From: Clostridia bacterium
Lineage (GTDB): Bacteria; Bacillota; Peptococcia; DRI-13; DTU073
Assembly: GCA_028684195.1 (NCBI GenBank)
Contig: JAQUGH010000001.1
Span: forward strand, 19,771 to 83,770
Length of the DNA: 64,000 bases
Direction of reading: 5' to 3'
The stretch's first letter is position 1; every line of letters starts with the position of its first letter. Position numbers and translations under genes: made by a program. The notes beneath the pieces are model-generated. The model searched no databases, was not told where the DNA came from, and worked only from the letters and a program-made list of their open reading frames with translations. This document shows positions 4,653 to 49,633 of the stretch, in pieces.

Positions 4653-4693
4653 GCTACTTCATCCCGTTTCTATCACAGCGGAAAAATCCAATA

Positions 4694-4739
4694 CCACTTT
4701 ACTCCACTTGATACCACTTCACTCCACTTGATACCACTT
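4694..4739 (-). promoter_or_regulatory. Array of five direct AAGTGG repeats with exact 10-bp spacing (putative MraZ operator boxes)
   Basis: On the plus strand CCACTT occurs at 4694, 4704, 4714, 4724 and 4734, which is AAGTGG on the mraZ strand. The array lies 42-90 bp upstream of the mraZ start. Confidence 0.7.
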
Positions 4740-6466: not shown

Positions 6467-7426
6467 TTATTTAGACGACTTCATGGATATCGCCTTCAAT
6501 TGACGTATGCTTTGCCCAGTAAATTTCAATATTTTCGATGTTCCCATAATTCTGTCACTCAATCTATCTTCATACGTTTTTCCTATTTCATTCGGCATAA
6601 GATTAGTACTGATTACCCAAGGTAGTTGATAATTAATTCTCTCATCAAATAAATAAAATAATTGTTCACGTACAAAATCCGTAGCCACTTCTGTTCCTAA
6701 ATCATCAATAATTAATAAATCTACCCTAAAAAGTGATTTTAACTCATTATGAAATGACTTTTCAAATTTATCAAGATTAAACTTATACTCTCGAAGCATC
6801 TCTAATATTTTTCCGCTCTTAAGATAAACAACATTTACCCCTGCCTTTAATACATAATTTGCTATAGCACTACATAAATGTGTCTTACCTATTCCTATCG
6901 GCCCACAAACGAAAAGATTCTCTGCTTTTTTCCTTTCACATATCTCTTCTGCAAAATTTATGCTTTGCTGTAATATAAGACGATACCGTTCTTTATCCTC
7001 ATACCAATCCAAGGAAAATGTATTAAAAGTTTGTTGCTTTTGCTCCGGTCCCAACCCACTACATTTCAATCGTGTTTGTATCTCTTCTTGAAGAAGGCAA
7101 CTGCATTTTTCCCCTATCCCTATAAATCCTGTGTCCTGGCATTTCTCACAATCCCACCAAACGTTATACATGTTATTAGGTAGATTATATTGCTTCATTA
7201 ATGCACTCTTCTCAGCCTGAAGTGTTTCTTGTCCTTTAAGCAATTCCTCATGCGACATCCCCATTTTGCCTTTACCCATTCCCATCAAGGCGATTTCTAA
7301 TGACATTTGAGCAAACAGCCGTGATATTTCCTCTAATCGAGGATATTTTTTATGTAGTGCTTCTATTCTAACTACCCATTCAGCTATTTTCTTTTTTCTT
7401 TTCAATGCACGTCCTGATAAAGACAT
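6467..7426 (-). CDS. dnaI: DnaI/DnaC-like helicase loader ATPase (IstB-like AAA+)
   Basis: Walker A is GPIGIGKTHL and Walker B is LLIIDDLG, with an N-terminal Cys-rich zinc-like region (CEKCQDTG...CSC). The start was moved to the ATG at 7426, which is preceded by GGTGGGTGG. The track ORF extends to 7468. Confidence 0.8.
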   Translation of the reverse strand: MSLSGRALKRKKKIAEWVVRIEALHKKYPRLEEISRLFAQMSLEIALMGMGKGKMGMSHEELLKGQETLQAEKSALMKQYNLPNNMYNVWWDCEKCQDTGFIGIGEKCSCLLQEEIQTRLKCSGLGPEQKQQTFNTFSLDWYEDKERYRLILQQSINFAEEICERKKAENLFVCGPIGIGKTHLCSAIANYVLKAGVNVVYLKSGKILEMLREYKFNLDKFEKSFHNELKSLFRVDLLIIDDLGTEVATDFVREQLFYLFDERINYQLPWVISTNLMPNEIGKTYEDRLSDRIMGTSKILKFTGQSIRQLKAISMKSSK

Positions 7427-7440
7427 TAATTTCCACCCAC

Positions 7441-8388
7441 CTAATTTACATCTAGCATTTTTTCCCAATCTCTGCTGTCAGCATGACTAATCCGTTTCTT
7501 CTTATTCCCCTGCTTTTGAGTCTTTTCTTCCTTATTATCATGTTCATATAAAGCTTTCCCGGCATCCTCTATATTTTTCACTCCTTGACTATACCAATTT
7601 TCGAGAATACTATCAATATATTTAAAGCTTGGACTATTGGTACGTACCGTTTCCTCAGCCGCTTTCATAATAACTTCATGCCCAAATTTCCACTGACCAC
7701 ACCACTTCATGTACATTTCCCGTTGCGGTCTAGTTATACCTCCGTACTGACCTACACATTTTTTTACTTCTCCGACCTTATACTGTATCCAATCTAAATT
7801 ATCAATAAAGGATATCAATCCGTCCACTGTATTTATTCCGTTTTCATACACTCTTTTGGCTACAGGCTTGTATACTTGTATATTTGTTTGTCCTCTCTCA
7901 AAACACAATTGAAGAAATATTAAAATAAATTCCGTAGACCAACCATATTTTATATTAAATTCTTGCAGTAATTGTTTTTCTCTGAGCGTTATAGATAAGG
8001 TTCCTCTTGCTTGATCAAGCCATTTAAGAATTTGATTATAATCGAATTTGCCTTTTTCATTTGCAGAAACCGACTTACACTCATCTTTAGCTTTATCTAT
8101 CTTTTGTAAAACATAATACAACCTTCTCCAAAGAGGCGAAAAAGAAATCGTTTTAGCTTCTCCCTCCAAATTCCAAGTACACCATCCTTCTGCTAAGGCC
8201 CATTTTATCCAATAATCCTTCGCATATTCTTCTGGAGAAGATATTATTTTACTTCTTGCCATAGCTAAAAGTAGATATCCTAAATTTTCCGAAGAAATAT
8301 CCAAACTTTGTATGTTTTCAATTAAAATAAGAGGTATATTAATATGTCCTCTTTCCATCACACAATCAATATATTCGTAATCCTGCAA
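7441..8388 (-). CDS. DnaD-domain replication initiation / membrane attachment protein (DnaB/DnaD family)
   Basis: 315 aa. It pairs with, and overlaps, the downstream DnaI-like gene as in Firmicute dnaB-dnaI operons. The DnaD-like repeat region includes YENGINTVDGL and IDSILENWYSQGV. Confidence 0.7.
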   Translation of the reverse strand: MQDYEYIDCVMERGHINIPLILIENIQSLDISSENLGYLLLAMARSKIISSPEEYAKDYWIKWALAEGWCTWNLEGEAKTISFSPLWRRLYYVLQKIDKAKDECKSVSANEKGKFDYNQILKWLDQARGTLSITLREKQLLQEFNIKYGWSTEFILIFLQLCFERGQTNIQVYKPVAKRVYENGINTVDGLISFIDNLDWIQYKVGEVKKCVGQYGGITRPQREMYMKWCGQWKFGHEVIMKAAEETVRTNSPSFKYIDSILENWYSQGVKNIEDAGKALYEHDNKEEKTQKQGNKKKRISHADSRDWEKMLDVN

Positions 8389-8399
8389 ATAAAACCCTC

Positions 8400-9254
8400 C
8401 TAAAAAGTCAATGATTTAAAAATAATATGAACCCCATAAACTATTAAGCCAGTCAGTCCCTCCAATTCTTGGCAAACAACCTTCCGAACTTCTTTGGCTA
8501 TATCAGGAAGATAGTATCCATAAAGAGCTGTGATCTCAATTCGTACTGTTACCCCCTCTTCCTGCATATTTACCAATACTTTGTTAACCTGAGATACGCC
8601 GGGATTTTGAATAACAACATACGTTACAATTTGAGATACAACATTTTCTGAAATGAGTAATTTCCCTATATAACTAAATTTCGGTCTAATAATTGACTTC
8701 TCTCCAATTTTATGTCTACTCTCATTCTTCTTTTTAAAAAAGTATTTCAAAGGATCAACTAAATATCCTGGGAAATCTTTTTTTACCTCTATGGTAGGAA
8801 CAGGTATTACGTGCATTCCATGATTATTACGATATTCTAATGCTAATTTTATTTCTTTTTCAGTTGCAACATCTTCAATATGTATCACTTCAGTAGGTTC
8901 CGGGAGTTCCAGTGTCTTTGTAATTCTTAATACCATCCGCAAAGATGTTCCCAAAACCAAAATTTTAGATGCATTAATTTCTTTAAGACTTTTCTGTACA
9001 TCACGAGCATGCTCATGATCAAGGAAAATAGCCCTTTTCACAGCTTTAAGTGTTGTAGCTTCCCTTTTTGCTGATTTACCAGTCACCTTGTATCCATCTT
9101 TAATTAAAAGGCCATCATCAATTACCGTATCTATTCCATGCTTATAGGCTATAGTCATGGCTCGATGACTCTTTCCCGTACCACTTGAGCCAACCAAAGC
9201 ATATACCTCCATCACCATCACCACCATCACTAAGGTTTCTATCCCTTTATCCAC
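8400..9254 (-). CDS. Fusion protein: N-terminal P-loop NTPase domain plus C-terminal Asp23/Gls24 (alkaline shock protein) domain
   Basis: Walker A is GSSGTGKSHRA, followed by HGIDTVIDDGLLI. The C-terminal ~110 aa (ISENVVSQIVTYVV...VTVRIEITALYGYYLPDIAKEVRKVV) looks like Asp23. The start codon is uncertain because of an M/V-rich N-terminus. Confidence 0.6.
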   Translation of the reverse strand: MDKGIETLVMVVMVMEVYALVGSSGTGKSHRAMTIAYKHGIDTVIDDGLLIKDGYKVTGKSAKREATTLKAVKRAIFLDHEHARDVQKSLKEINASKILVLGTSLRMVLRITKTLELPEPTEVIHIEDVATEKEIKLALEYRNNHGMHVIPVPTIEVKKDFPGYLVDPLKYFFKKKNESRHKIGEKSIIRPKFSYIGKLLISENVVSQIVTYVVIQNPGVSQVNKVLVNMQEEGVTVRIEITALYGYYLPDIAKEVRKVVCQELEGLTGLIVYGVHIIFKSLTF

Positions 9255-16762: not shown

Positions 16763-18676
16763 TTATTTTAATTCTTCAAGTTTTATAAATACATTTTTCA
16801 TCTGTTCCTCTAATTTTTCTACAGAATCGTTCATCGTTTCTGTAACCTGCACAGTTTCTTCCGATAATTTTTTGACCTTCACCGCTTCCTTATTCTGCAC
16901 ATTTGTTTTATCAATAATATCTTCCACAAATGGCTTAATCTTCTTTAATTCCTCATTCGTCTTATCCGCAAGTTTTCTTATCTCCTCTGCCACAACAGCA
17001 AATCCTCTTCCCTTTTCCCCCGCTCTGGCAGCTTCAATTGCTGCATTGAGGGCAAGAAGATTTGTCTGATCAGCGACCTCACCAATTGTATTCACAATAG
17101 GAACAAGATTCTTTGTTTTAGTAACAACCTCACTAGATAATTGTTGAAATTTACATATATTGTCAATTATTACAGAATACTTTTCGAACGTAGCATCGGA
17201 GCTAGAAGATATTTCCTTAACATTATATGTTATTTCTGAAAAAATATCTGACACTTGACAAAGCATTTTTTTGATTTTATCGCCATTTTTCTCTGCTTCA
17301 ATGCTTTTTTCCTCATAAAGAATTTTATTATTTTCCGCTCTCATCATGGAATCTTGTATTATCTTACTCTCCCGCAACATCTCTTTTTCCCTATAAAGAT
17401 GACAATTGTTGGGCTTATTTAAACCATTAAAAATTGCCACAGCCATTTCATAACAACTGTTATATCCACATGAACCGCAGTTTCGCATATCTATTTCTGA
17501 TTCTTTATTCATATCAGAATATACCTTTTCTAATTCTGCAGGTGAAGGCCTTTGTATTTTGAAATTATCCGTAAGATCCTGATAATGTTTATAACTAAAA
17601 TCGCACTCTTTTATTACATTATTTATAAATTTACTTAATATTTTATTGTTCTTATTATTCTTTTCGTTGTTGTCTACACGTTCAGCTATCATGCCCTCAA
17701 TCTGATCTATAGACTTATTATGATTAATACATCCAGGCCCCATATTACATCCTTTTTCACAATTCAATATGTCAACCACTACAGGCAAATAAGGCTTATC
17801 TTCCTTAATACCTTTTTCCAAATCACTTAAATACTTATAAAAAACCAATGGTCCTTCTATTTTGGTTATTACCCTCTTTTTTGTTTGAGGATACCTATAT
17901 ATGTACGATTCTTTAAGACCACCTGGTGTTGAAAAGTTAGCCGCAACCTCAGCTTCCACTGGTCCATCGAACCTACCTTTCTCCAATTCATCAACATTAA
18001 TATTTTTTTCTCTGAACAGCTTCTCAATAGACTTATATGTAACATTAAATTTAATTATTTGACTATCTGCAAATTCACGTCTTTTTGCCAAACAAGGTGA
18101 AATAAAAGCCAAGGTATACTGCGGATACTTTGATTTTACATAAACCGCTATATCATGTACCGGGCTTCCACTGGGTGCTAAATGACCAATTAATTCAGGA
18201 TGTTTCAGCTCAATATATTTTACTATAGCCGGACAAGGTTGTGATATGACTGGTGTTTTAACTTTTCCAGATGCAATAGCTTCATGATAACAAGCAACAG
18301 TTATCTCTGCTCCCAAAGAAACGTCAAAGACTGCTTTTACCCCCACCTTTTTTAGTGCTGTAATAAGTTGCGGCAATTCAAAGTTACTATATGCAGAAGG
18401 TGCAACCAATGCTGCTACTTTCTCCCCTGATGATAAAGCCCTTTTAAATGCTTCTAAATCATCAATAGGGTACCTAGCACTTTTCTCTTCATTACCATCA
18501 TGAACAGTAATACAAGCCTCTATACAAGCTCCACAACCAATACATAATGAATCATTCAGCTTAACATATTCTCCACTTCCATCATTACAAAGCTTAACAG
18601 GACAAACCGTTATACATCTGTGACAATTGATGCAATTTTCTTCTCTAATACCAACTACTTTCACTAATTCTTTCAA
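16763..18676 (-). CDS. Soluble chemoreceptor: ferredoxin plus [FeFe]-hydrogenase-like sensory domain fused to a methyl-accepting chemotaxis signalling domain
   Basis: N-terminal CxxCxxCxxxCP motifs are present. The hydrogenase large-subunit-like motifs are [16 protein letters not shown] and [11 protein letters not shown], plus the [16 protein letters not shown] Fe-S motif. The C-terminal MCP hairpin tip reads [35 protein letters not shown]. No TM helix is seen. Confidence 0.8.
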
Positions 18677-18777: not shown

Positions 18778-20085
18778 TCACTTGTCTTTCTTTCTAATAG
18801 ATGGGGGCATCTTTTGTGATATTTCCAACATTCCTTCTGCCATCTCTGTTACTTTCTCTCTTAATTTAAATATGCAATCAACCTCATCTGCTTGTCCCCT
18901 TACAATATCTTCTGCCAAAGCTCGACAAGTAGGTGCACCACACGACCCACAATCTAACCCGGGCAAAAATTTTTCAATCACCTCAAGATTCTCCATTTTC
19001 TGCATAGCAATAGCAATATTATCATCCAGTTTTAAAACTTCAATTGGCTTTATTTTTTCCGTAAACATAAGCTCCTGCCAATCAGGATGCTTCGCTAATT
19101 CTTGCTGCTTGTCCACTTTATTTCGTGCCAACCAATCTATGCGAGCTTTTGCCATAAAAGGATTTTCTACAGTAAGCGGTCCGCCAACACAACCTCCTAC
19201 ACATGACAACGCTTCAATAAAATCTACTTCTTTTAACTTACCCATTACTACTTCTTCCAAAACCTTAGTCACATTTTCAACACCATCAACAGCAAGATAT
19301 CGAAGTCCTGAAATGAATCTGCTTTCTCCACCGCTAATTGCCCATCCCACACCTGCTCCAGAGGATTTTTGCAAATCAGGTGCCTTTTTAATATCTTTTA
19401 TTTTACTTAAAAGTAGTCCATATATTTCGGATATCCCAATGACACCATCAACAGCAGAGTTTTTCATACCAACCGGATTTTTTACCCCTGTTACCTTGGC
19501 AGCACAAGGTGAAATGAAAAATACGCCAACTTTTTCCGAAGGATATCCTGCCTTACTCATCTCTTCCTTAGCTATCTTAGCTGCCGTTTCCATAGGTGAC
19601 TTAATTGGAACTATATTATTTATAAGTTCAGGGAATTTTACCTGAATTAATTTTACTACTGCCGGACAAGCCGAAGAAATAACCGGTCTGGGAAAATCCT
19701 TATTACTAAGAAAATCATTTACTGCACGAGTAACCAGTTCCGCACCCAATGCTACTTCCCATACCTTATAAAACCCCAATTCTAACAAACCTGCAATAAT
19801 ATGATTCACTGTAAATTTAGTTCCAAACTGACTATACAAACTCGGAGCTGGAAGAGCAATCGGATATTCATATCCCTTGATTTTTTCCAAAGGATCAGTT
19901 ATGGCTAATTTTGCATGATATGGACAGATCCTTATACACTCGCCACAATCAATACACCGTTCATCGATTATTTTAGCCTTCCCATCACGAACACGAATAG
20001 CCTCCGTAGGACAATGTTTTATACAATTTGTACAACCCCTGCATAACTCTTCATCAAGAGTAACCGAGTGAAAATATGAATCCAC
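18778..20085 (-). CDS. Sensory-type [FeFe]-hydrogenase-like protein (HydS/HfsB-like, no PAS domain seen)
   Basis: Two ferredoxin motifs are CRGCTNCIKHCP and CIDCGECIRICP. H-cluster-like motifs are SSACPAVV, FISPCAAK and LSCVGGCVGGP. A C-terminal CGSCGAPTCRALAEDI Fe-S motif is also present. Confidence 0.8.
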   Translation of the reverse strand: MDSYFHSVTLDEELCRGCTNCIKHCPTEAIRVRDGKAKIIDERCIDCGECIRICPYHAKLAITDPLEKIKGYEYPIALPAPSLYSQFGTKFTVNHIIAGLLELGFYKVWEVALGAELVTRAVNDFLSNKDFPRPVISSACPAVVKLIQVKFPELINNIVPIKSPMETAAKIAKEEMSKAGYPSEKVGVFFISPCAAKVTGVKNPVGMKNSAVDGVIGISEIYGLLLSKIKDIKKAPDLQKSSGAGVGWAISGGESRFISGLRYLAVDGVENVTKVLEEVVMGKLKEVDFIEALSCVGGCVGGPLTVENPFMAKARIDWLARNKVDKQQELAKHPDWQELMFTEKIKPIEVLKLDDNIAIAMQKMENLEVIEKFLPGLDCGSCGAPTCRALAEDIVRGQADEVDCIFKLREKVTEMAEGMLEISQKMPPSIRKKDK

Positions 20086-20104
20086 CTAATTTCACCCCTT
20101 CATT

Positions 20105-20148
20105 AACAATAGTTTAACAATAGTTTAACAATGGTTCAACAATCGTTC
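20105..20148. repeat. Four tandem 11-bp units AACAAT(A/G/C)GTT(T/C)
   Basis: The units are AACAATAGTTT, AACAATAGTTT, AACAATGGTTC and AACAATCGTTC, read directly. They fill the 64-bp spacer between the kinase-like gene and the hydrogenase-like gene. The same motif array recurs at 49430-49487. Confidence 0.9.
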
Positions 20149-20149
20149 C

Positions 20150-20581
20150 CTACCTAATAATCATCTTAATAGTAGTACCCTTCCCTTTTTGAGATTCTAT
20201 ATTAAATGTATCAGCACAATTTCGCATATTAGGTAACCCCATTCCGGCGCCAAACCCCATTTCCCTAATGCTCTCTGGTGCTGTAGAATATCCTTCTTGC
20301 ATAGCCTTATCTATATTTGGTATACCAGGTCCTGTATCAGTTATTGAGATGCACACTACATCTGGTTTGATTTCAGCTTTTATCACTCCTCCCCAGGAGT
20401 GAATAACCAAATTCATTTCTGCTTCATAAGTAGCAATCGCTACACGCCTTATAAGACTTGAGGGAAACCCTAGCTTCATTAACTTATTTTTTATCTTTGA
20501 ACTAGCCTCTCCAGCGCAGGTGAAATTACCCTTCTCCACAAAATAACTCATGACCATTGGTTTAACTATATTATCTCTCAT
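20150..20581 (-). CDS. RsbW/SpoIIAB-like anti-sigma-type serine kinase (GHKL ATPase domain only)
   Basis: 143 aa. HATPase_c motifs are EAEMNLVIHS (N box), TDTGPGIPN (G1) and GFGAGMGLPN (G2). There is no HisKA domain. Confidence 0.75.
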   Translation of the reverse strand: MRDNIVKPMVMSYFVEKGNFTCAGEASSKIKNKLMKLGFPSSLIRRVAIATYEAEMNLVIHSWGGVIKAEIKPDVVCISITDTGPGIPNIDKAMQEGYSTAPESIREMGFGAGMGLPNMRNCADTFNIESQKGKGTTIKMIIR

Positions 20582-20730: not shown

Positions 20731-21432
20731 TTAACTGCACTTTACATTTTTGATCATGTACCCAACGCCACTACAAGTTACAATATATTCAGGATTTCCA
20801 GCATCACGCTCAATTTTTTGTCTTAATCTTCCCACACTCACTCTTAAATAATGGGTACAATCCTTATATTCACTTCCCCAAATTTCTTCCAATAGTTCAT
20901 CGTGATGTACTACTTTACCTGCATTATTAGCTAAATAAGTTAAAAGTTTAAATTCAGTAGGAGTTAAATGTGCTACATGTCCATCAACCGATACCTGTCT
21001 TTGTGCTAGATCAATTAAAAGACTGCCCAGTTTAATTCTATCAGAAGAATTTTGCGAAAGGTTGTTTTTAACCCTTCGCAAAACAGCATTAACTCGTGCC
21101 AATAATTCTTCTACTGCAAAAGGTTTTGAAACATAATCGTCAGCCCCTGCATTCAAACCTTCTACAGCATCCTGCATATCACCTTTTGCCGTAATCATAA
21201 TGATAGGTACATCTGATTTCTTTCTAATACGTCTACACACCTCTAATCCATCTAATTCCGGAAGCATAATGTCCAGAATTATTACATCCAGTTTTGATGT
21301 TTCAAATTTAGACAAAGCTTCTAAACCTGTCATAGCAGATACCACTTCATATCCACTAGCCCTGAGATTTGCTCTTATAAAGCGTAAAATATTTGACTCA
21401 TCATCTACTACTAAAGCTACTAGCTTGTTCAT
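20731..21432 (-). CDS. OmpR-family DNA-binding response regulator
   Basis: 233 aa. The receiver domain has VVDDE...DVIILDIMLP...ITAKG. The C-terminal winged helix has LTPTEFKLLTYLA...GVGY. There is a 4-bp overlap with the upstream kinase gene. Confidence 0.9.
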   Translation of the reverse strand: MNKLVALVVDDESNILRFIRANLRASGYEVVSAMTGLEALSKFETSKLDVIILDIMLPELDGLEVCRRIRKKSDVPIIMITAKGDMQDAVEGLNAGADDYVSKPFAVEELLARVNAVLRRVKNNLSQNSSDRIKLGSLLIDLAQRQVSVDGHVAHLTPTEFKLLTYLANNAGKVVHHDELLEEIWGSEYKDCTHYLRVSVGRLRQKIERDAGNPEYIVTCSGVGYMIKNVKCS

Positions 21433-24161
21433 TTTTCTTCCCCCTCCACATTTTTACATGGTAAAGTAAAATAAAATTCACTGCCTTTGCCTAAACTACT
21501 TTCAACCCAAATAGAACCCCCATGATTCTTTATTATCCATTTTGTAATAGCAAGCCCGACGCCACTACCATTAATGCGTAATGCCATTTTATTTTCAACA
21601 CGATAAAATCTTTTAAAAATATCTTTATGATATTGAGGTGCTATCCCTATGCCTTGATCTATTACTCCCACCTTTATCATATTTTCTTTTTTTAAATATC
21701 CTAATTTTACATAAATAACCTTCTCTGCGGAAGAATATTTTACTGCATTTTCCAATAGGTTATTAAGAACATGTTCTATCCTCTGTTCATCCATCACAAT
21801 AATAGGTAGATCCCCTCTATCATCTACCTTGAAAATATTTTTAGGATACCTATCCCTTAAACGTTTTAAAACCCTAGCCGTAATTTTACTAATGTTAGCA
21901 TTATGTAGATTTAGTTTAAAAACTCCAGCCTCTATCTTAGAAATATCCATAATATTATCTATTAAATATTCTAATCTTTTACTTTCCTCAATAATAGCTT
22001 TAATAAAATCCGTCTTTTCATCCTCAGTCCAAGTTACACCCTGTCTTAAAAGAGAGTCCGCACTCCCATAGATCGTAGTCAATGGAGAACGAAATTCATG
22101 CGATACAGTAGATAATATAGAATCCTTTAAAATATTCACTTGTCTTTCTCGTGTTACATCACGCATAACATATCCATAACCAATAAAAGTCTTACCCGTC
22201 ATTACAGGAAACCCCTGTACCTTATAATAATTAGTATTATCCTTATATGTGACTGAACCCTTCCCATATTCATATGCCTGTTGCTCTTTATAACATTTTT
22301 TCATCTCATCCCAAGGTAGCTCTATTAATGTTTCAGGATCTATATAGTTACGAAATTCTGATATGTATAAATCCGCAGTCCATTCTGATTCTTTCAAATG
22401 AAATATTTTTAGTAATAATGGATTTACATATATTATTTTCCCCCTCGTATCAAGTATAATAATCCCCTCATGCATACCATTAATCACAGCAAGCAATGTA
22501 TGATGTTCCTCATTTACTACATTAAAAAGAGCCAAATTGCTTATAACTACCCCAAGCTGATTAGCAACAGCTTGCAATACAATAATCTCTTGATCTTTAA
22601 AACGATTTGCGACACGACTCGTTAAAGTCACCGCACCTAATACAACATCTTGGTATCTAATAGGCACACTAACAAGAGATCTCATATCACTCCAACAAAG
22701 CGCAAGTGGAACATTTTTTTCATTTTTCTGCAAATCATCAATTACAACAATATCTCTTTTTTCCATAGCCAATTTACTGTACCAGCCAGTACATTCCGTA
22801 TAAATTATCTTCTCAGTCCGTGGATAGTTTGCACCCCAAATCGTATGTACAAGTTTTTCATTATCTGTCCTATGAAGATAGATATTAGCTAATTCTACTT
22901 CAAACAACTTCATTACTTCATTTAAAACTAAATTTATAACATCGGTTAAATTACAAGTCTCATTTACAGAAGAAACAACAGCATATAATGTAGCCATCTC
23001 TTTATCTTTCATAACAAGTTCCCTTGTTCGCTCTCTAACTCGCCTTTCAAGATTATTTCCATGCTTTTTAAGCATGGAATCTACTTTTTCTAGATTATCT
23101 GCCATAGAATTAAATCCTTCACCCAACTTATTTATTTCCGGAAGTATATTATTTCTTGCAAATTCAACCCGATACGCTAAATTTCCTATTGCCAATTCTG
23201 AATTAGCCTTATTAATCTGAGACAAAGGAATAACTATTTTATTAATTAACGATTTTTTAATAGAGAATATAACAAATACTCCTAGCAACAATATCCCAAA
23301 AGATATACCCATTGCCTTATACAAAGGTAGCAACACCTCGTAACGCGGTGCAGTCACCCACATTGTCCAACCTAAATTATTTAATTTTAAATAACAAGCT
23401 GTTTCACCAAGTTTAGATAACGGAGAAAAATAATTTAATGAACCTTCCGATGATTTCTTTAAAGCATTTAAAATTGGATAATTCTCAGGAAAAGAATCTA
23501 CCTTTCTATCATAAGAATAGATCACTCGATTATTGCCATCTACTAAAACAAAATGTCCTAAAGATGCCATATCCCCTTTCTTTAATAATCTATATATTTC
23601 ATCCATATCTAAAGTACCTATAACATACCCACAATACCTTCCTTCCTTAGTTTTTATCGGTTTAGCTACAAAAATTATTTCATTTCCGTTATGCTCTCGT
23701 ATAACCTGACTTACTATAGATGTCTCTGCTCTTTTAAATTTACTTGTAACATTATTCCATAGACATCTATCCTTTTCTAAAATATAATACGCCGTTATTT
23801 CATCATATTTAGAGCTAAACTGACAAGCTTCACAATTTAAAAATATATCAACAAAGCCCTCATAATGCTCCGCATATTTTTCAATCATATCCTTCAGTTT
23901 TGTACCTTTTAAATTACATTGAGAATTATAAAACTGTCCTGCCTGTTCACTTATATTATTCACAGCAAAAATATACTTGTTAATATAACGTGTTAATTCT
24001 TCTGCTTGTTCTACAACAGCAGAAGAATAATTTGCTTTTAGCTCTTTCTCTTTTTCTATTAAATCAAAAGTAACATAAATACCCAGTATAGCAAGCGGTA
24101 TTATGGCTAATGCTACTATAATCTTCGTATAAAAAGAAAGCGTCAATTTTTTTTTCAGCAT
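21429..24161 (-). CDS. Multi-domain sensor histidine kinase (periplasmic Cache-like, HAMP, GAF, PAS, HisKA, HATPase)
   Basis: 910 aa with two TM helices flanking a ~250-aa extracytoplasmic domain. The HAMP region includes LAIGNLAYRVE and the H-box is VSHEFRSPLTTI. The N/G boxes are LENAVKYS, DQGIGI and GSGVGLAI. Confidence 0.85.
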   Translation of the reverse strand: MLKKKLTLSFYTKIIVALAIIPLAILGIYVTFDLIEKEKELKANYSSAVVEQAEELTRYINKYIFAVNNISEQAGQFYNSQCNLKGTKLKDMIEKYAEHYEGFVDIFLNCEACQFSSKYDEITAYYILEKDRCLWNNVTSKFKRAETSIVSQVIREHNGNEIIFVAKPIKTKEGRYCGYVIGTLDMDEIYRLLKKGDMASLGHFVLVDGNNRVIYSYDRKVDSFPENYPILNALKKSSEGSLNYFSPLSKLGETACYLKLNNLGWTMWVTAPRYEVLLPLYKAMGISFGILLLGVFVIFSIKKSLINKIVIPLSQINKANSELAIGNLAYRVEFARNNILPEINKLGEGFNSMADNLEKVDSMLKKHGNNLERRVRERTRELVMKDKEMATLYAVVSSVNETCNLTDVINLVLNEVMKLFEVELANIYLHRTDNEKLVHTIWGANYPRTEKIIYTECTGWYSKLAMEKRDIVVIDDLQKNEKNVPLALCWSDMRSLVSVPIRYQDVVLGAVTLTSRVANRFKDQEIIVLQAVANQLGVVISNLALFNVVNEEHHTLLAVINGMHEGIIILDTRGKIIYVNPLLLKIFHLKESEWTADLYISEFRNYIDPETLIELPWDEMKKCYKEQQAYEYGKGSVTYKDNTNYYKVQGFPVMTGKTFIGYGYVMRDVTRERQVNILKDSILSTVSHEFRSPLTTIYGSADSLLRQGVTWTEDEKTDFIKAIIEESKRLEYLIDNIMDISKIEAGVFKLNLHNANISKITARVLKRLRDRYPKNIFKVDDRGDLPIIVMDEQRIEHVLNNLLENAVKYSSAEKVIYVKLGYLKKENMIKVGVIDQGIGIAPQYHKDIFKRFYRVENKMALRINGSGVGLAITKWIIKNHGGSIWVESSLGKGSEFYFTLPCKNVEGEEK

Positions 24162-32275: not shown

Positions 32276-32280
32276 GAAGG

Positions 32281-33143
32281 AAAATCACGGGGACAGAAAA
32301 TCACGGGGACAGGTACCTTGATTTACGCTTTTAACGCTAAACTATAATTAACACCTGTAATCCTTGCTATTTGCCTTATTGATACGCCCTTAATACCTTT
32401 TATCTTCTTTACTATTTCGTCTCTTTTCTCTTTTTCAAAGCCTTGTATCTCACTGACTCTTTTTACTCCCGTAATACTTTTAATCAGCTTTCTTGCTTCA
32501 GTATCATTAATTTTTTTGCTTACTTCGTATTCTAAGCATTTATCTTCATTTTTTTCGTTGCTAAAAACAATAAATCTTGGGATAGCAACCATTTTATCTT
32601 CCGAAAAAATTTCTAGTGCTAAGTCAACATCAACTATTTTACCTGCATTTAAATATTCGTTATAGCTACTCCATTTGTATTCTTCAAGCTTTTTTATCAT
32701 ATTTGCTTTTCTCGGATTTTGATGTATATACCTTAATACTGTTAAAAAATAGCTATCATCTTCAACTGTTTCACTTTTAAATCTCTCTTGAAAAAGATGT
32801 CCATATCTACAATACTTCCTATTATAGTAATACACATAGCTTGAACTTATCCTTTTTATAATTTGCGAAATATCTTCTTGTACTTCTTTCATTAATAGGT
32901 GGACATGGTTACTCATTAAGCAATATGCATAAATTTTACATCCACTTTTTTCTTTATATATCGCAAGTGTTTTAATGAACTTTTGTCGATCTTGATCATC
33001 TTCAAATAAGTCTTGTTGATTGATTCCTCTAAACATTACATGGTATATTCCGCTCTCGCTTTTTTCTCTTGCTGTTCTAGCCATTTTCTCACCCCAAAAG
33101 CATTATACCATATTTTCATTAAGAATCAAGGTACCTGTCCCCG
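32281..33143 (-). mobile_element. HUH-transposase (IS200/RAYT-like) element bounded by 17-bp perfect inverted repeats
   Basis: CGGGGACAGGTACCTTG (32304-32320) and its exact reverse complement CAAGGTACCTGTCCCCG (33127-33143) flank the transposase gene. The left end also carries a tandem 16-mer, AAAATCACGGGGACAG x2 (32281-32312). Confidence 0.7.
32323..33084 (-). CDS. IS200/IS605-family Y1 (HUH) transposase, REP-associated tyrosine transposase-like, with C-terminal HTH
   Basis: 253 aa. It has the GIYHVMFRG start, the HUH motif SNHVHLL and the catalytic Tyr region LRYIHQNP. The C-terminal segment GVSIRQIARITGVNYSLALKA is HTH-like. Confidence 0.85.
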   Translation of the reverse strand: MARTAREKSESGIYHVMFRGINQQDLFEDDQDRQKFIKTLAIYKEKSGCKIYAYCLMSNHVHLLMKEVQEDISQIIKRISSSYVYYYNRKYCRYGHLFQERFKSETVEDDSYFLTVLRYIHQNPRKANMIKKLEEYKWSSYNEYLNAGKIVDVDLALEIFSEDKMVAIPRFIVFSNEKNEDKCLEYEVSKKINDTEARKLIKSITGVKRVSEIQGFEKEKRDEIVKKIKGIKGVSIRQIARITGVNYSLALKA

Positions 33144-46620: not shown

Positions 46621-46810
46621 GTTGCTTTTCCCCTTTACTATTTTACTATTTACTCTATTTACTCTATTTACTTAAAATAGTTAACCTAAGCTATAAATTT
46701 TCACAATCCAATTACACCAACAAATAAACTGTTTATAAGATTAACTATCAAGAGAGAGCACAGAAGAACCGTCCCTTTGTGTCTCCTTCATTATTGTACT
46801 CAAAAGATTA

Positions 46811-47862: not shown

Positions 47863-49440
47863 ATGTCACTAGAAAGTTGTATCAACAACATTTTACAAAG
47901 GTCTGAGGTGAAATCTAATTTATCCATTCCTGCACTAATGGAAGCAGCCATACGCCGAGGGGAGGGTATTCTCACAAATAAAGGCTCACTACGCGTAACT
48001 ACAGGAAAATATACAGGTCGATCCCCCGATGACAAATTCTTTGTTCGGGACAAAATGAGTGAAAACGTCATAAATTGGTGCAACATAAACAGACCAATGT
48101 CCCCGCAAAATTATCAATTGCTATTTGAAGATATCACGAATTATTTAATGAATCAAGAGGTTTTTGTTTTTGATGGGTATGCAGGTGCAGATTCACATCA
48201 TCGTTTGAAACTTCGTATTATTAATGACCAAGCATGGCAAAATATGTTTTGTCATCAACTTTTTATTCGACCAACTGCTGAAGAACTTGTTGATTTTTTC
48301 CCAGACTACCATATCATCGCAGCACCAGGATTTAAGGCAAATCCGCAAAAACATGGTACTAACTCGGAGGCTGCTATAGTTGTCAACCTAACAGAAAAAA
48401 CTATTCTTATCGCAGGTGCATCTTATGCCGGAGAAATTAAAAAGTCCGTGTTCTCTCTTGTCAATTATGTACTACCTATTAAGAACGTTCTGTCAATGCA
48501 CTGTTCTGCTAACGTAGATTCCGCAGGTAATTCCGCACTGTTTTTTGGACTATCCGGAACTGGTAAGACTACACTTTCAGCCGATCCTAAAAGGCAACTA
48601 ATAGGCGATGATGAACATGGATGGTCTAATGCTGGTATATTTAACATCGAAGGGGGTTGTTATGCCAAGAGTATTGGTCTTAGCGCACTCGATGAACCTC
48701 AAATTTATGGGGCTATTCGCTTTGGTACAGTTCTTGAGAACGTTTCTATAAATAAGAATACTCGTGAAGTTGATTTTTCTAATGGAGATATTACTGAAAA
48801 CACCAGGGCAGCTTACCCTCTTAATTACATACCTAATGCTTTAATACCCAGCATAGCCGGTCACCCAAAAGTGATATTTTTCTTAACGGCTGACGCCTTT
48901 GGTGTACTTCCTCCTATTGCTTCACTTAACATAGAACAAGCAATGTATCATTTTCTTTCCGGATATACAAGTAAATTGGCAGGAACTGAGAGAGGAATAA
49001 AAGAACCACAGGCTACTTTTTCTGAATGCTTTGGTTCTCCATTTCTTCCTTTACCTCCAATCAAATATGCAAATTTATTAGGTGAAAAAATAAGTGAGTT
49101 TGGAACGCAAGTGTATTTGTTAAATACCGGTTGGACTGGAGGTTCTTACGGAGTTGGTCACAGATTTAAAATACCACATACTCGCACTATTCTCACGGCA
49201 GCCTTAGAAGGAACTTTGAAAAATATTCCAACTCATAAAGATCCTATATTTGGTTTTGAAGTTCCAGAATTTTGTCCCGGTGTACCAAAAGAAATCTTTA
49301 CTCCCCAAAAAACTTGGTTACATCCAGAAGATTATCCGGTTCAAGCATTAAAGTTAGCTACCCTATTTAGAAAGAACTTTACAAAATTCAAGGATATTCC
49401 TGAAGGAATTTCAAATGCTTCACCCATCATTAAACAATAG
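47863..49440 (+). CDS. pckA: Phosphoenolpyruvate carboxykinase (ATP)
   Basis: 525 aa. It has the kinase-1a motif GLSGTGKTTLS, plus GDDEHGW and NIEGGCYAK. Confidence 0.95.
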   Translation: MSLESCINNILQRSEVKSNLSIPALMEAAIRRGEGILTNKGSLRVTTGKYTGRSPDDKFFVRDKMSENVINWCNINRPMSPQNYQLLFEDITNYLMNQEVFVFDGYAGADSHHRLKLRIINDQAWQNMFCHQLFIRPTAEELVDFFPDYHIIAAPGFKANPQKHGTNSEAAIVVNLTEKTILIAGASYAGEIKKSVFSLVNYVLPIKNVLSMHCSANVDSAGNSALFFGLSGTGKTTLSADPKRQLIGDDEHGWSNAGIFNIEGGCYAKSIGLSALDEPQIYGAIRFGTVLENVSINKNTREVDFSNGDITENTRAAYPLNYIPNALIPSIAGHPKVIFFLTADAFGVLPPIASLNIEQAMYHFLSGYTSKLAGTERGIKEPQATFSECFGSPFLPLPPIKYANLLGEKISEFGTQVYLLNTGWTGGSYGVGHRFKIPHTRTILTAALEGTLKNIPTHKDPIFGFEVPEFCPGVPKEIFTPQKTWLHPEDYPVQALKLATLFRKNFTKFKDIPEGISNASPIIKQ

Positions 49441-49487
49441 TTAAACGATCGTTAAACAATTGTTAAACAGTGGTTAAACAATCGTTT
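49430..49487. repeat. Five tandem 11-bp units (TT)AAACAATNGTT-type; same motif as 20105-20148
   Basis: The units are AACAATAGTTA, AACGATCGTTA, AACAATTGTTA, AACAGTGGTTA and AACAATCGTTT. The array starts in the last codons of pckA and ends 3 bp before the -35 box of the tRNA promoter. Confidence 0.9.
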
Positions 49488-49489
49488 AC

Positions 49490-49518
49490 TTGACATTTAG
49501 TTTCACCCGTGTTAAGAT
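49490..49518 (+). promoter_or_regulatory. Sigma-A type promoter of tRNA-Leu
   Basis: TTGACA (49490-95), a 17-nt spacer, then TAAGAT (49513-18), about 30 nt upstream of the tRNA. Confidence 0.55.
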
Positions 49519-49548: not shown

Positions 49549-49633
49549 GCGGAAGTGCTGGAATTGGCAGACAGGCACGTTTGAGGGGCGTGTGGCGTAA
49601 GTCGTGCGGGTTCAAGTCCCGCCTTCCGCACCA
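49549..49633 (+). tRNA. tRNA-Leu, anticodon GAG, with encoded CCA
   Basis: Folded by hand. The acceptor stem pairs GCGGAAG with CTTCCGC. The anticodon stem pairs CACGT with GCGTG around the loop TTGAGGG. A long variable arm marks it as class II. The T-arm is GCGGGTTCAAGTCCCGC and the 3' end is CCA. Confidence 0.9.

Follow-up and report, generated by a model that had tools for sequence, protein, structure and literature searches.

PF05635 proteins have been reported in the intervening sequences of 16S and 23S rRNA and as insertions within cas operons, and they are homologues of Avd; the papers searched call this large family functionally uncharacterised. [quoted passage not shown] The intervening sequences of 23S rRNA form a stem that is removed by RNase III. 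In cyanobacteria, the STRR sequences of Mazel et al. 1990 are reportedly short tandemly repeated repetitive heptamers. Integron attC sites have a core GTTRRRY and an inverse core RYYYAAC within a single imperfect hairpin of 57-141 bp, with R and L boxes and extrahelical bases, and lie beside or downstream of intI. In B. subtilis, the PhoP box TT(A/T/C)ACA-N5 and the WalR box TGTWAH-N5 place their hexamers every 11 bp.

Here we analysed two 11-bp tandem arrays, called array 1 and array 2, in a 64-kb stretch of clostridial DNA; "the window" means this whole stretch. Both arrays are real and non-random, and a role as a local regulator is not supported.

Two 11-bp arrays in the window

Array 1 lies between two minus-strand genes, with the following surroundings:

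20105..20148, no strand: array 1, four 11-bp units (AACAATAGTTT twice, AACAATGGTTC and AACAATCGTTC)
20150..20581, minus strand: RsbW-like kinase gene (HATPase_c_2), which ends in a TAG at 20150-20152, 1-2 nt away from array 1
20093..20099, minus strand: ribosome-binding site of the hydrogenase-like gene, AGGGGTG on the minus strand, 5 nt past array 1
18778..20085, minus strand: gene for a Fe-hydrogenase-like / FeS sensory protein of 435 aa with a GTG start (20085), downstream of array 1
20731-21432, minus strand: OmpR-family response regulator, outside the element; considered as a binder of the array and rejected
21429-24161, minus strand: dCache-GAF-PAS histidine kinase, outside the element

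The four units that the initial annotation had placed at 20105-20148 were confirmed by Tandem Repeats Finder (20103-20147, period 11, 4.1 copies, 91% matches) and by reading of the sequence. They take up the space that separates the kinase stop codon from the ribosome-binding site of the hydrogenase-like gene, within a probable operon. Terminator prediction gives none at this place, and array 1 shows no convincing promoter and no visible target-site duplication.

Array 2 lies between pckA and a tRNA gene:

47863..49440, plus strand: pckA, whose last codons (ATT AAA CAA) and TAG stop form the first unit of array 2
49433..49487, no strand: array 2, five 11-bp units (AACAATAGTTA, AACGATCGTTA, AACAATTGTTA, AACAGTGGTTA and AACAATCGTTT), with the lattice running from about 49430
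49490..49518, plus strand: tRNA-Leu promoter, TTGACA-17-TAAGAT with a TG extension, kept in relatives without the array
49549..49633, plus strand: tRNA-Leu(GAG)

Tandem Repeats Finder reports this array at 49426-49486, with period 11, 5.5 copies and 80% matches. It covers about -38 to -98 relative to the sigma-70-type tRNA-Leu promoter, and the -35 TTGACA starts 2 nt after the array ends. A second array 29 kb from the first, with the same period and orientation, was part of the initial annotation. Its presence and its period of 11 hold, and recurrence at this distance excludes slippage at a single locus, as had been argued. The shared orientation is true on the plus strand, but it means little because the unit is nearly symmetric.

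That near self-complementarity, also recognised from the start, is best described as a symmetric lattice, GTT-N-AAC-N-AT-N, whose 11-bp unit GTTNAACNATN is repeated in tandem. In the nine window units the AAC, the T and the GTT are invariant, while the base preceding GTT takes all four identities. The lattice has two alternating dyads and so reads alike on either strand. Across 650 units from 135 arrays outside the window, the consensus is G(.94) T(.95) T(.96) N A(.98) A(.94) C(.96) N A(.84) T(.81) N, where conservation of GTT and AAC is partly imposed by the search pattern and the array finder and that of the A and T positions mostly is not. The linker N in these units is fully degenerate, with A, C, G and T evenly used. 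Because the lattice is symmetric, a fixed orientation of the arrays relative to downstream genes could not be assigned. A single fixed orientation just upstream of the ribosome-binding site was considered and rejected, with 18 sense against 11 antisense cases and many ambiguous.

The suspicion that the arrays are not due to chance proved sound. All exact matches to AACAATNGTT in the 64 kb fall within arrays 1 and 2. Under a weight matrix derived from the nine units, every adjacent unit pair reaches at least 28.7, compared with 11.4 for the best pair elsewhere in the window. Two GTTNAAC cores spaced 11 bp apart form five runs in the window, all inside the arrays, and none occurred in 100 Markov-1 random 64-kb sequences. 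Weaker or two-unit sites upstream of other genes were likewise absent from the 64 kb. Among independent assemblies of the same organism, the sequence of array 1 is identical base for base in two others and that of array 2 is identical in one other, so neither is an assembly artefact.

We then compared both loci with their orthologous sites. Four relatives (69-74% protein identity to the hydrogenase-like protein) keep the order response regulator, kinase, hydrogenase-like gene, and the histidine kinase gene upstream is also present at three of the four places. In all four, the kinase/hydrogenase-like spacer is only 17-20 nt and contains no array: (T/C)GAAGGAGTGAAG comes immediately after the kinase stop and leads into the start codon. 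The ribosome-binding site, TGAAGGAGTGAAG in these relatives, is ancestral. Relative to these spacers, the window has about 46 extra bases (GG, the four units and an A), inserted precisely at the junction of stop codon and ribosome-binding site. At the second locus, three relatives labelled Peptococcia (PckA 69-73% identity) keep pckA, the TTGACA-17-TAAGAT promoter and tRNA-Leu(GAG) without the array. Their pckA stop and -35 are separated by 35-38 nt of unrelated AT-rich sequence. No lattice run was found in 42 kb of the relatives' DNA. Since the arrays are missing at the orthologous sites, this comparison shows arrays 1 and 2 to be recent, lineage-specific additions rather than ancestral control sites.

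The dispersed lattice family and PF05635 genes

The lattice was searched for in one genome per species and in viral contigs, using a three-unit pattern that requires the GTT/AAC cores; since it demands these cores, the family statistics are biased towards the GTT-N-AAC-N-AT-N unit. A more degenerate two-unit pattern was swamped by chance matches on the viral contigs. The three-unit pattern yielded at least 102 genome loci, none of those listed overlapping the window, and 11 viral contigs. Carriers include assemblies of Clostridia, Thermotogae, Synergistetes and Bacteroidota as well as phages, with taxonomy taken from the record titles of metagenome-assembled genomes, which may be imperfect. 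Seven assemblies have 5-8 separate loci each among the matches listed: three anaerobic-digester Clostridiales, a Tissierellaceae, Clostridia SMAG_U10216, a Thermotogaceae and Flavisolibacter SMAG_U1804. Further carriers are Serpentinicella, Proteiniborus, Alkaliphilus, Syntrophomonas, Synergistaceae, Chitinophagaceae and Bacteroides. Carrier genomes that are complete or nearly so include a 2.39-Mb Clostridia genome (CAXXDC010000001.1), Serpentinicella sp. ANB-PHB4 and Syntrophomonas wolfei subsp. methylbutyratica JCM 14075. In the window organism, two lattice arrays are documented, within the 64-kb window. The initial annotation had made its reading depend on non-random occurrence across the genome, on positional bias and on conservation in related genomes; dispersal elsewhere is strongly non-random, whereas the sites themselves are not conserved in relatives.

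The arrays are overwhelmingly intergenic. By crude ORF calls, 126 of 135 arrays lie outside ORFs, compared with 20% of bases. Many start a few bases from a stop codon or run up to a ribosome-binding site, and the genes that flank them are co-directional in 46 cases, convergent in 11 and divergent in 2 (n=59). CCCCTT motifs that resemble ribosome-binding sites recur directly beside the arrays. Arrays have a median of four units and at most 19 (135 arrays). Arrays are found in phages and in polysaccharide or accessory-gene regions. One phage (L047/L132), which encodes a terminase, a Mu-F-like protein and a replisome organiser, has at least four arrays with units as in array 1. Its two near-identical contigs differ at one of these junctions by exactly 66 bp, or 6 units, which indicates that arrays grow and shrink by whole units. 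At locus L143, arrays separate small accessory-gene cassettes that encode RhuM, a YhcG-type nuclease and a PF05635 protein. A literature search on the repeat sequence and on 11-bp tandem repeats found no description in the searchable literature, and this dispersed intergenic family is apparently undescribed.

When 191 array-flanking proteins were clustered, the notable recurrent groups were only sugar-nucleotide epimerases/dehydratases and a PF05635 protein of 116-133 aa. A Pfam census of 150 flanking proteins agrees: PF05635 is the only recurrent small-gene family among the best 25 of 186 matched families, and no transposase or recombinase family is among those 25. The lattice stands on both sides of a PF05635 gene at seven loci, five in genomes from Clostridia and Bacteroidota (L143, L208, L232, L165 and L231) and two in metagenomes (L243 and L244). 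Among the matches listed, lattice arrays adjoin a PF05635 gene at 5 of about 100 genome loci. Three genomes, Flavisolibacter SMAG_U1804, Serpentinicella ANB-PHB4 and Clostridia CSMAG_113, contain both a lattice-flanked PF05635 gene and solo arrays. The window arrays are solo, with no PF05635 match among window ORFs of at least 60 aa.

We also examined 80 metagenome PF05635 loci, which are relatives of the array-flanked proteins and not a random sample of the family. The two closest relatives (92% and 79% identity) have the 11-mer lattice on both sides, and most of the other loci are bordered by tandem arrays built on different units (period 7, 8, 10, 11 or 22). Array coverage reaches 18-33% in the first 100 bp on each side and falls to 0.2-2.5% beyond 300 bp. 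Arrays are present on at least one side in 54 of 67 loci and on both sides in 30 of 67. Array type tracks PF05635 clade, and the clade of the lattice-flanked genes is closest to the window unit. Insertion sites known for PF05635 genes include rRNA genes, cas operons and polysaccharide clusters.

The two flanks of a PF05635 gene are related as inverted repeats: the inverted-repeat score exceeds the direct-repeat score in 54 loci, the reverse holding in 12, and the predicted RNA duplex between the flanks is stronger than in shuffles (z < -3) at 34 of 70 loci. On the coding strand, GTT[GT]A occurs at 18.8 per kb in the 5' flank, compared with 4.5 for its complement, and T[AC]AAC at 18.6 per kb in the 3' flank, compared with 5.0, with a background of about 3 per kb for either motif. 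Counted by locus, this strand polarity is 61 vs 8 on the 5' side and 59 vs 7 on the 3' side. The coding-strand architecture is thus (GTTKA)n, gene, (TMAAC)n, with flanking arrays that are mutually complementary and able to form a long stem. No paper tying PF05635 to flanking tandem arrays or to strand polarity was found in the searchable literature.

Origin of the arrays and alternative readings

We think it probable that arrays 1 and 2 are gene-less ("solo") copies of a dispersed intergenic tandem-repeat family that is linked to PF05635 cassettes. Their relation to these cassettes would then be that of MITEs, REPs or solo LTRs to autonomous elements. A solo array could have arisen by recombination between the two arrays flanking a gene. 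Because the lattice repeats itself in direct as well as inverted orientation, recombination of one array with the other would remove the gene, with a solo array left in its place. Alternatively, array copies may have been seeded independently. Since a minority of arrays adjoin PF05635, the cassettes could instead land preferentially in pre-existing arrays, and the data are compatible with both directions. In either case, arrays may be selfish or near-neutral DNA that spreads and is retained at any site tolerating an insertion.

The cassette arrays probably pair in a read-through transcript, with the resulting stem setting the small gene apart, in parallel with the stem of rRNA intervening sequences on which RNase III acts. 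Their strand polarity suggests a role as single strands, that is, as RNA. An Avd-like pentamer may also bind the cassette arrays, as homology to Avd makes nucleic-acid binding by a PF05635 pentamer plausible. A stem-based role does not apply to array 1, because its RNA lacks significant self-structure. Effects at the two window loci would be by-products. With array 1 in place, stop and start are about 64 rather than about 18 nt apart, and translational coupling is probably weaker for it. Array 2 stands where the tRNA-Leu promoter would have its AT-rich -40 to -100 region, and it appears to set the last residues of PckA.

A locus-specific regulatory device, as the initial annotation had proposed, does not fit the orthologous loci, which keep the genes, the response regulator and the tRNA promoter and have no array. 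One version would be an operator at which head-to-tail dimers of an OmpR/PhoB-family regulator, such as the one encoded 600 bp away, control both the hydrogenase-like gene and tRNA-Leu. One strand of the units does read TTAACA and the opposite one TGTTAA/TGTTTA, spaced exactly 11 bp apart and in at least four copies; a response regulator and histidine kinase pair is encoded just upstream of array 1, and array 2 covers about -38 to -98 of a sigma-70-type promoter. Even so, we consider such an operator very improbable and reject it, because orthologous loci lack the array and the dispersed lattice is shared by several phyla. The four relatives retain the regulator and its supposed targets, and the histidine kinase gene at three of four places, with no array. 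Elsewhere the family lies mostly after stop codons, in phages as well as in several phyla, and array 1 itself, with no convincing promoter, separates a stop codon from a ribosome-binding site. A symmetric unit whose linker is fully degenerate also speaks against an operator, unit number differs between near-identical phages, and the 64 kb hold no weaker or two-unit sites upstream of other genes. Two further operators were considered by their consensus. The Rex operator is TTGTTAA-N4-TTAACAA, and hydrogenase and pckA/PFOR genes are typical Rex targets, but the half-sites here are direct rather than inverted (judged by eye), and the absence of the array in relatives also argues against Rex. The Gram-positive LexA box is GAAC-N4-GTTC, which the unit resembles only in part. 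Curvature offers as little. Units phased with the helix could in principle form intrinsically bent DNA or an UP-element-like promoter enhancer, given a period near the helical repeat and the position of array 2 directly upstream of a strong tRNA promoter. We give this hardly any credence: a wedge model predicts an ordinary 30 and 44 degrees for the two arrays, compared with 28 +/- 15 for genomic 64-bp windows (95th percentile 55) and 88-108 degrees for A-tract controls. The units have no A-tracts, and array 1 has no convincing promoter, so the bend put forward in the initial annotation is not borne out.

Two further functional readings are less easily set aside. The lattice may be selected genome-wide for binding another protein along one helical face, for instance to organise the chromosome or to silence acquired DNA; candidates are the Avd-like PF05635 pentamer and proteins that are nucleoid-associated or act in silencing. 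Seven conserved and three free positions per unit resemble contact and non-contact positions, the 11-bp period is near the helical repeat, the arrays occur in phages and polysaccharide or accessory-gene regions, and array type tracks PF05635 clade. We nevertheless regard this as unlikely, as array position is not conserved between relatives, copy number is unstable, and the strand polarity of the cassette arrays favours a single-strand or RNA role over binding of duplex DNA. If a protein-binding lattice exists, it belongs to the genome-wide, cross-phylum family rather than to the hydrogenase-like operon. A locally selected RNA element would act on processing, stability or coupling of the cistrons at array 1, or on the 3' end of the pckA mRNA at array 2. 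Array 1 does lie inside a probable operon with no predicted terminator, the folding of array 2 is modestly better than that of shuffles for either strand (z = -2.8 and -3.3), and members of the family typically sit in transcribed spacers after stop codons. Such an element seems decidedly unlikely, however. The RNA of array 1 shows no gain in stability over shuffles (z = -0.6 and -0.1), which speaks against the coupling or processing motif suggested earlier. Rfam gives no match at array 1 and only chance-level miRNA hits far below gathering scores at array 2, the arrays are missing from the orthologous operons, array 2 also precedes a promoter, and convergent genes, too, can have family members between them.

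Reading arrays 1 and 2 as solo copies of a PF05635-linked repeat has several consequences. They are a warning against taking such sequences for an operator of the hydrogenase-sensing operon or of the tRNA promoter. More generally, lattice arrays cause assemblies to fragment and can pass for regulatory sites or CRISPR-like repeats. The link between PF05635 and arrays may account for intergenic short tandem repeats of obscure origin, and the strand-polar repeats together with the many gene-less arrays give testable hypotheses: an RNA stem, processing by RNase III, and binding by the pentamer. Tentatively, PF05635 and its strand-polar arrays might form a widespread, unrecognised class of selfish cassette that is set apart at the RNA level, with gene-less arrays as an abundant non-autonomous form seeding Clostridia, Thermotogae, Synergistetes, Bacteroidota and phages.

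Comparison with known systems

The arrays share with PhoP/WalR operators a head-to-tail series of hexamer-like motifs, every 11 bp and in at least four copies. Unlike OmpR/PhoB operator arrays, the lattice is not conserved with a regulator, is mostly off promoters, is symmetric, and extends across phyla and into phages.

The conserved GTT and AAC triplets are reminiscent of integron attC sites, in that GTT[AG]AAC fits GTTRRRY and GTT[TC]AAC fits RYYYAAC. In addition, the arrays separate accessory-gene cassettes in L143 and have polarity relative to the gene. However, the lattice consists of tandem 11-mers on both sides of the gene with no apparent attC architecture, we take the likeness as no more than a resemblance, and no integrase appears near the arrays in the best 25 of 186 matched families. 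Like STRR, the lattice is a family of short tandem repeats scattered intergenically, and some of the PF05635 genes examined here are flanked by 7-bp arrays. The lattice itself differs from STRR in its period (11 rather than 7), its unit sequence and its host taxa.

The genomic distribution of the arrays, extragenic and with few divergent neighbours, resembles that of REP elements and not that of operators. As with REP/BIME sequences and their RAYT proteins, the repeats are short, dispersed, palindromic and extragenic, are concentrated after stop codons, and lie between co-transcribed or convergent genes and rarely between divergent ones (2/59 here). Presence is lineage-specific in both, and in both a protein gene is bracketed by repeats. 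The repeat itself is a tandem 11-bp lattice rather than a single hairpin of 20-40 nt, with no GTAG/CGTC head. The bracketed gene also differs, encoding the four-helix-bundle PF05635 protein rather than a Y1 (HUH) transposase, a class that is absent from the best 25 of 186 families.

Stem pairing connects the lattice to the PF05635-ORF intervening sequences of 23S rRNA. The flanks of the cassettes are complementary, and solo array 2 pairs with itself (z about -3), while array 1 does not. Although the window arrays have no ORF and lie outside rRNA, the lattice elsewhere brackets PF05635 genes and, as in these intervening sequences, does so with complementary flanks that are capable of forming a stem.

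Array junctions and neighbouring genes in the window

Similar sequence lies directly before both window arrays, that is, before the four 11-bp units between the kinase and hydrogenase-like genes (array 1) and the five units between pckA and the tRNA-Leu promoter (array 2).

Sequence at the array starts; the slash marks the junction.
20090-20104, +, array 1 junction: TTCACCCCTTCATT/AAC
49420-49432, +, array 2 junction: TTCACCC-ATCATT/AAAC

At both sites this pre-array stretch is ancestral. It is the complement of a ribosome-binding site at array 1, and at array 2 it comprises the pckA codons for Ala-Ser-Pro. CCCCTT or CTCCTT also adjoins many arrays in other genomes. The shared sequence could reflect a target preference, or it could merely reflect selection on the places where insertion is tolerated. 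In P0121, the window species' public metagenome-assembled genome at NCBI, the annotation gives a partial pckA (447 of 525 aa), located on a 4-kb contig, and an assembly break close to array 2 may be the cause.

Three further short tandem repeats are present in the window, none of which is related to the lattice, the tandem of symmetric 11-bp units.

Other tandem repeats and the fusion gene near array 1.
4691-4739: 20-bp unit, 2.5 copies
32280-32312: 16-bp unit, 2.1 copies, 100% matches
46634-46672: 9-bp unit CTATTTACT, 3-4.7 copies
16763-18676, -: Fe-hydrogenase-like/chemotaxis fusion protein gene, 637 aa

In the 637-aa protein, a methyl-accepting chemotaxis signalling domain is fused to an Fe-hydrogenase-like one (Fe_hyd_lg_C plus FeS); the protein's gene adjoins the kinase and hydrogenase-like gene pair. 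In relatives, the corresponding cluster includes a CheW gene (L236, L237, L239). Together, the domain fusion, its neighbours and the CheW gene suggest a hydrogen- or redox-sensing chemoreceptor module.

Arrays in viral and phage contigs

The viral contig L056 carries a seven-unit AGTTAAACAGT array immediately 5' of a ribosome-binding site and ATG. Further arrays of 11-bp period, these with phased A-runs (AAAAAAGCCTG, AAAAAGGGGTA), form a cluster on the same contig that is likely curved DNA. The L056 array regions span 503-584 and 7739-7957. The array-rich phage contig L047 also contains 31/57-bp and 82-bp tandem repeats (7363-7572 and 8506-8822). At most of its gene junctions a motif, CGGTGTTTTATCGGTGGC, is repeated next to hairpins, and this may be a phage-specific promoter or terminator module.

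Larger architectures in other genomes

In some genomes the arrays are enclosed by longer flanking sequence that is itself conserved, as in ...cacaggcaaaaacattcatcttttgc[array]tatcgttcccaaggaggcacggcg..., and here the array is a component of a bigger multi-copy element.

Loci with conserved long flanks.
Thermotogaceae CAYZNB01: L141, L162, L200, L213, L222, L224
Mostly Clostridia SMAG_U10216: L138, L196, L215, L221, L227, L228 (the exception, L227, is a Clostridiales AS21ysBPME_83 contig)

Roughly 52 copies of an 8-bp unit (TTCCACAG) stand in tandem after a gene of PF05635, the family of 23S rRNA intervening-sequence proteins, at L321 1918-2332, so arrays flanking PF05635 genes are able to reach great length. 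On a Chitinophagaceae contig (L202 1567-2001), five lattice arrays are spaced by approximately 100 bp with a conserved spacer of approximately 60 bp, a higher-order repeat that might be taken wrongly for a CRISPR array. In a Clostridia genome (L143 2341-7926), lattice arrays set apart a row of accessory genes encoding a sugar transferase, a PF05635 protein, a RhuM-family protein, a YhcG/DUF1016 PDDEXK nuclease and a TPR protein. This arrangement looks cassette-like. The lattice core, GTT[AG]AAC / GTT[TC]AAC, also matches the integron core and inverse-core consensus.
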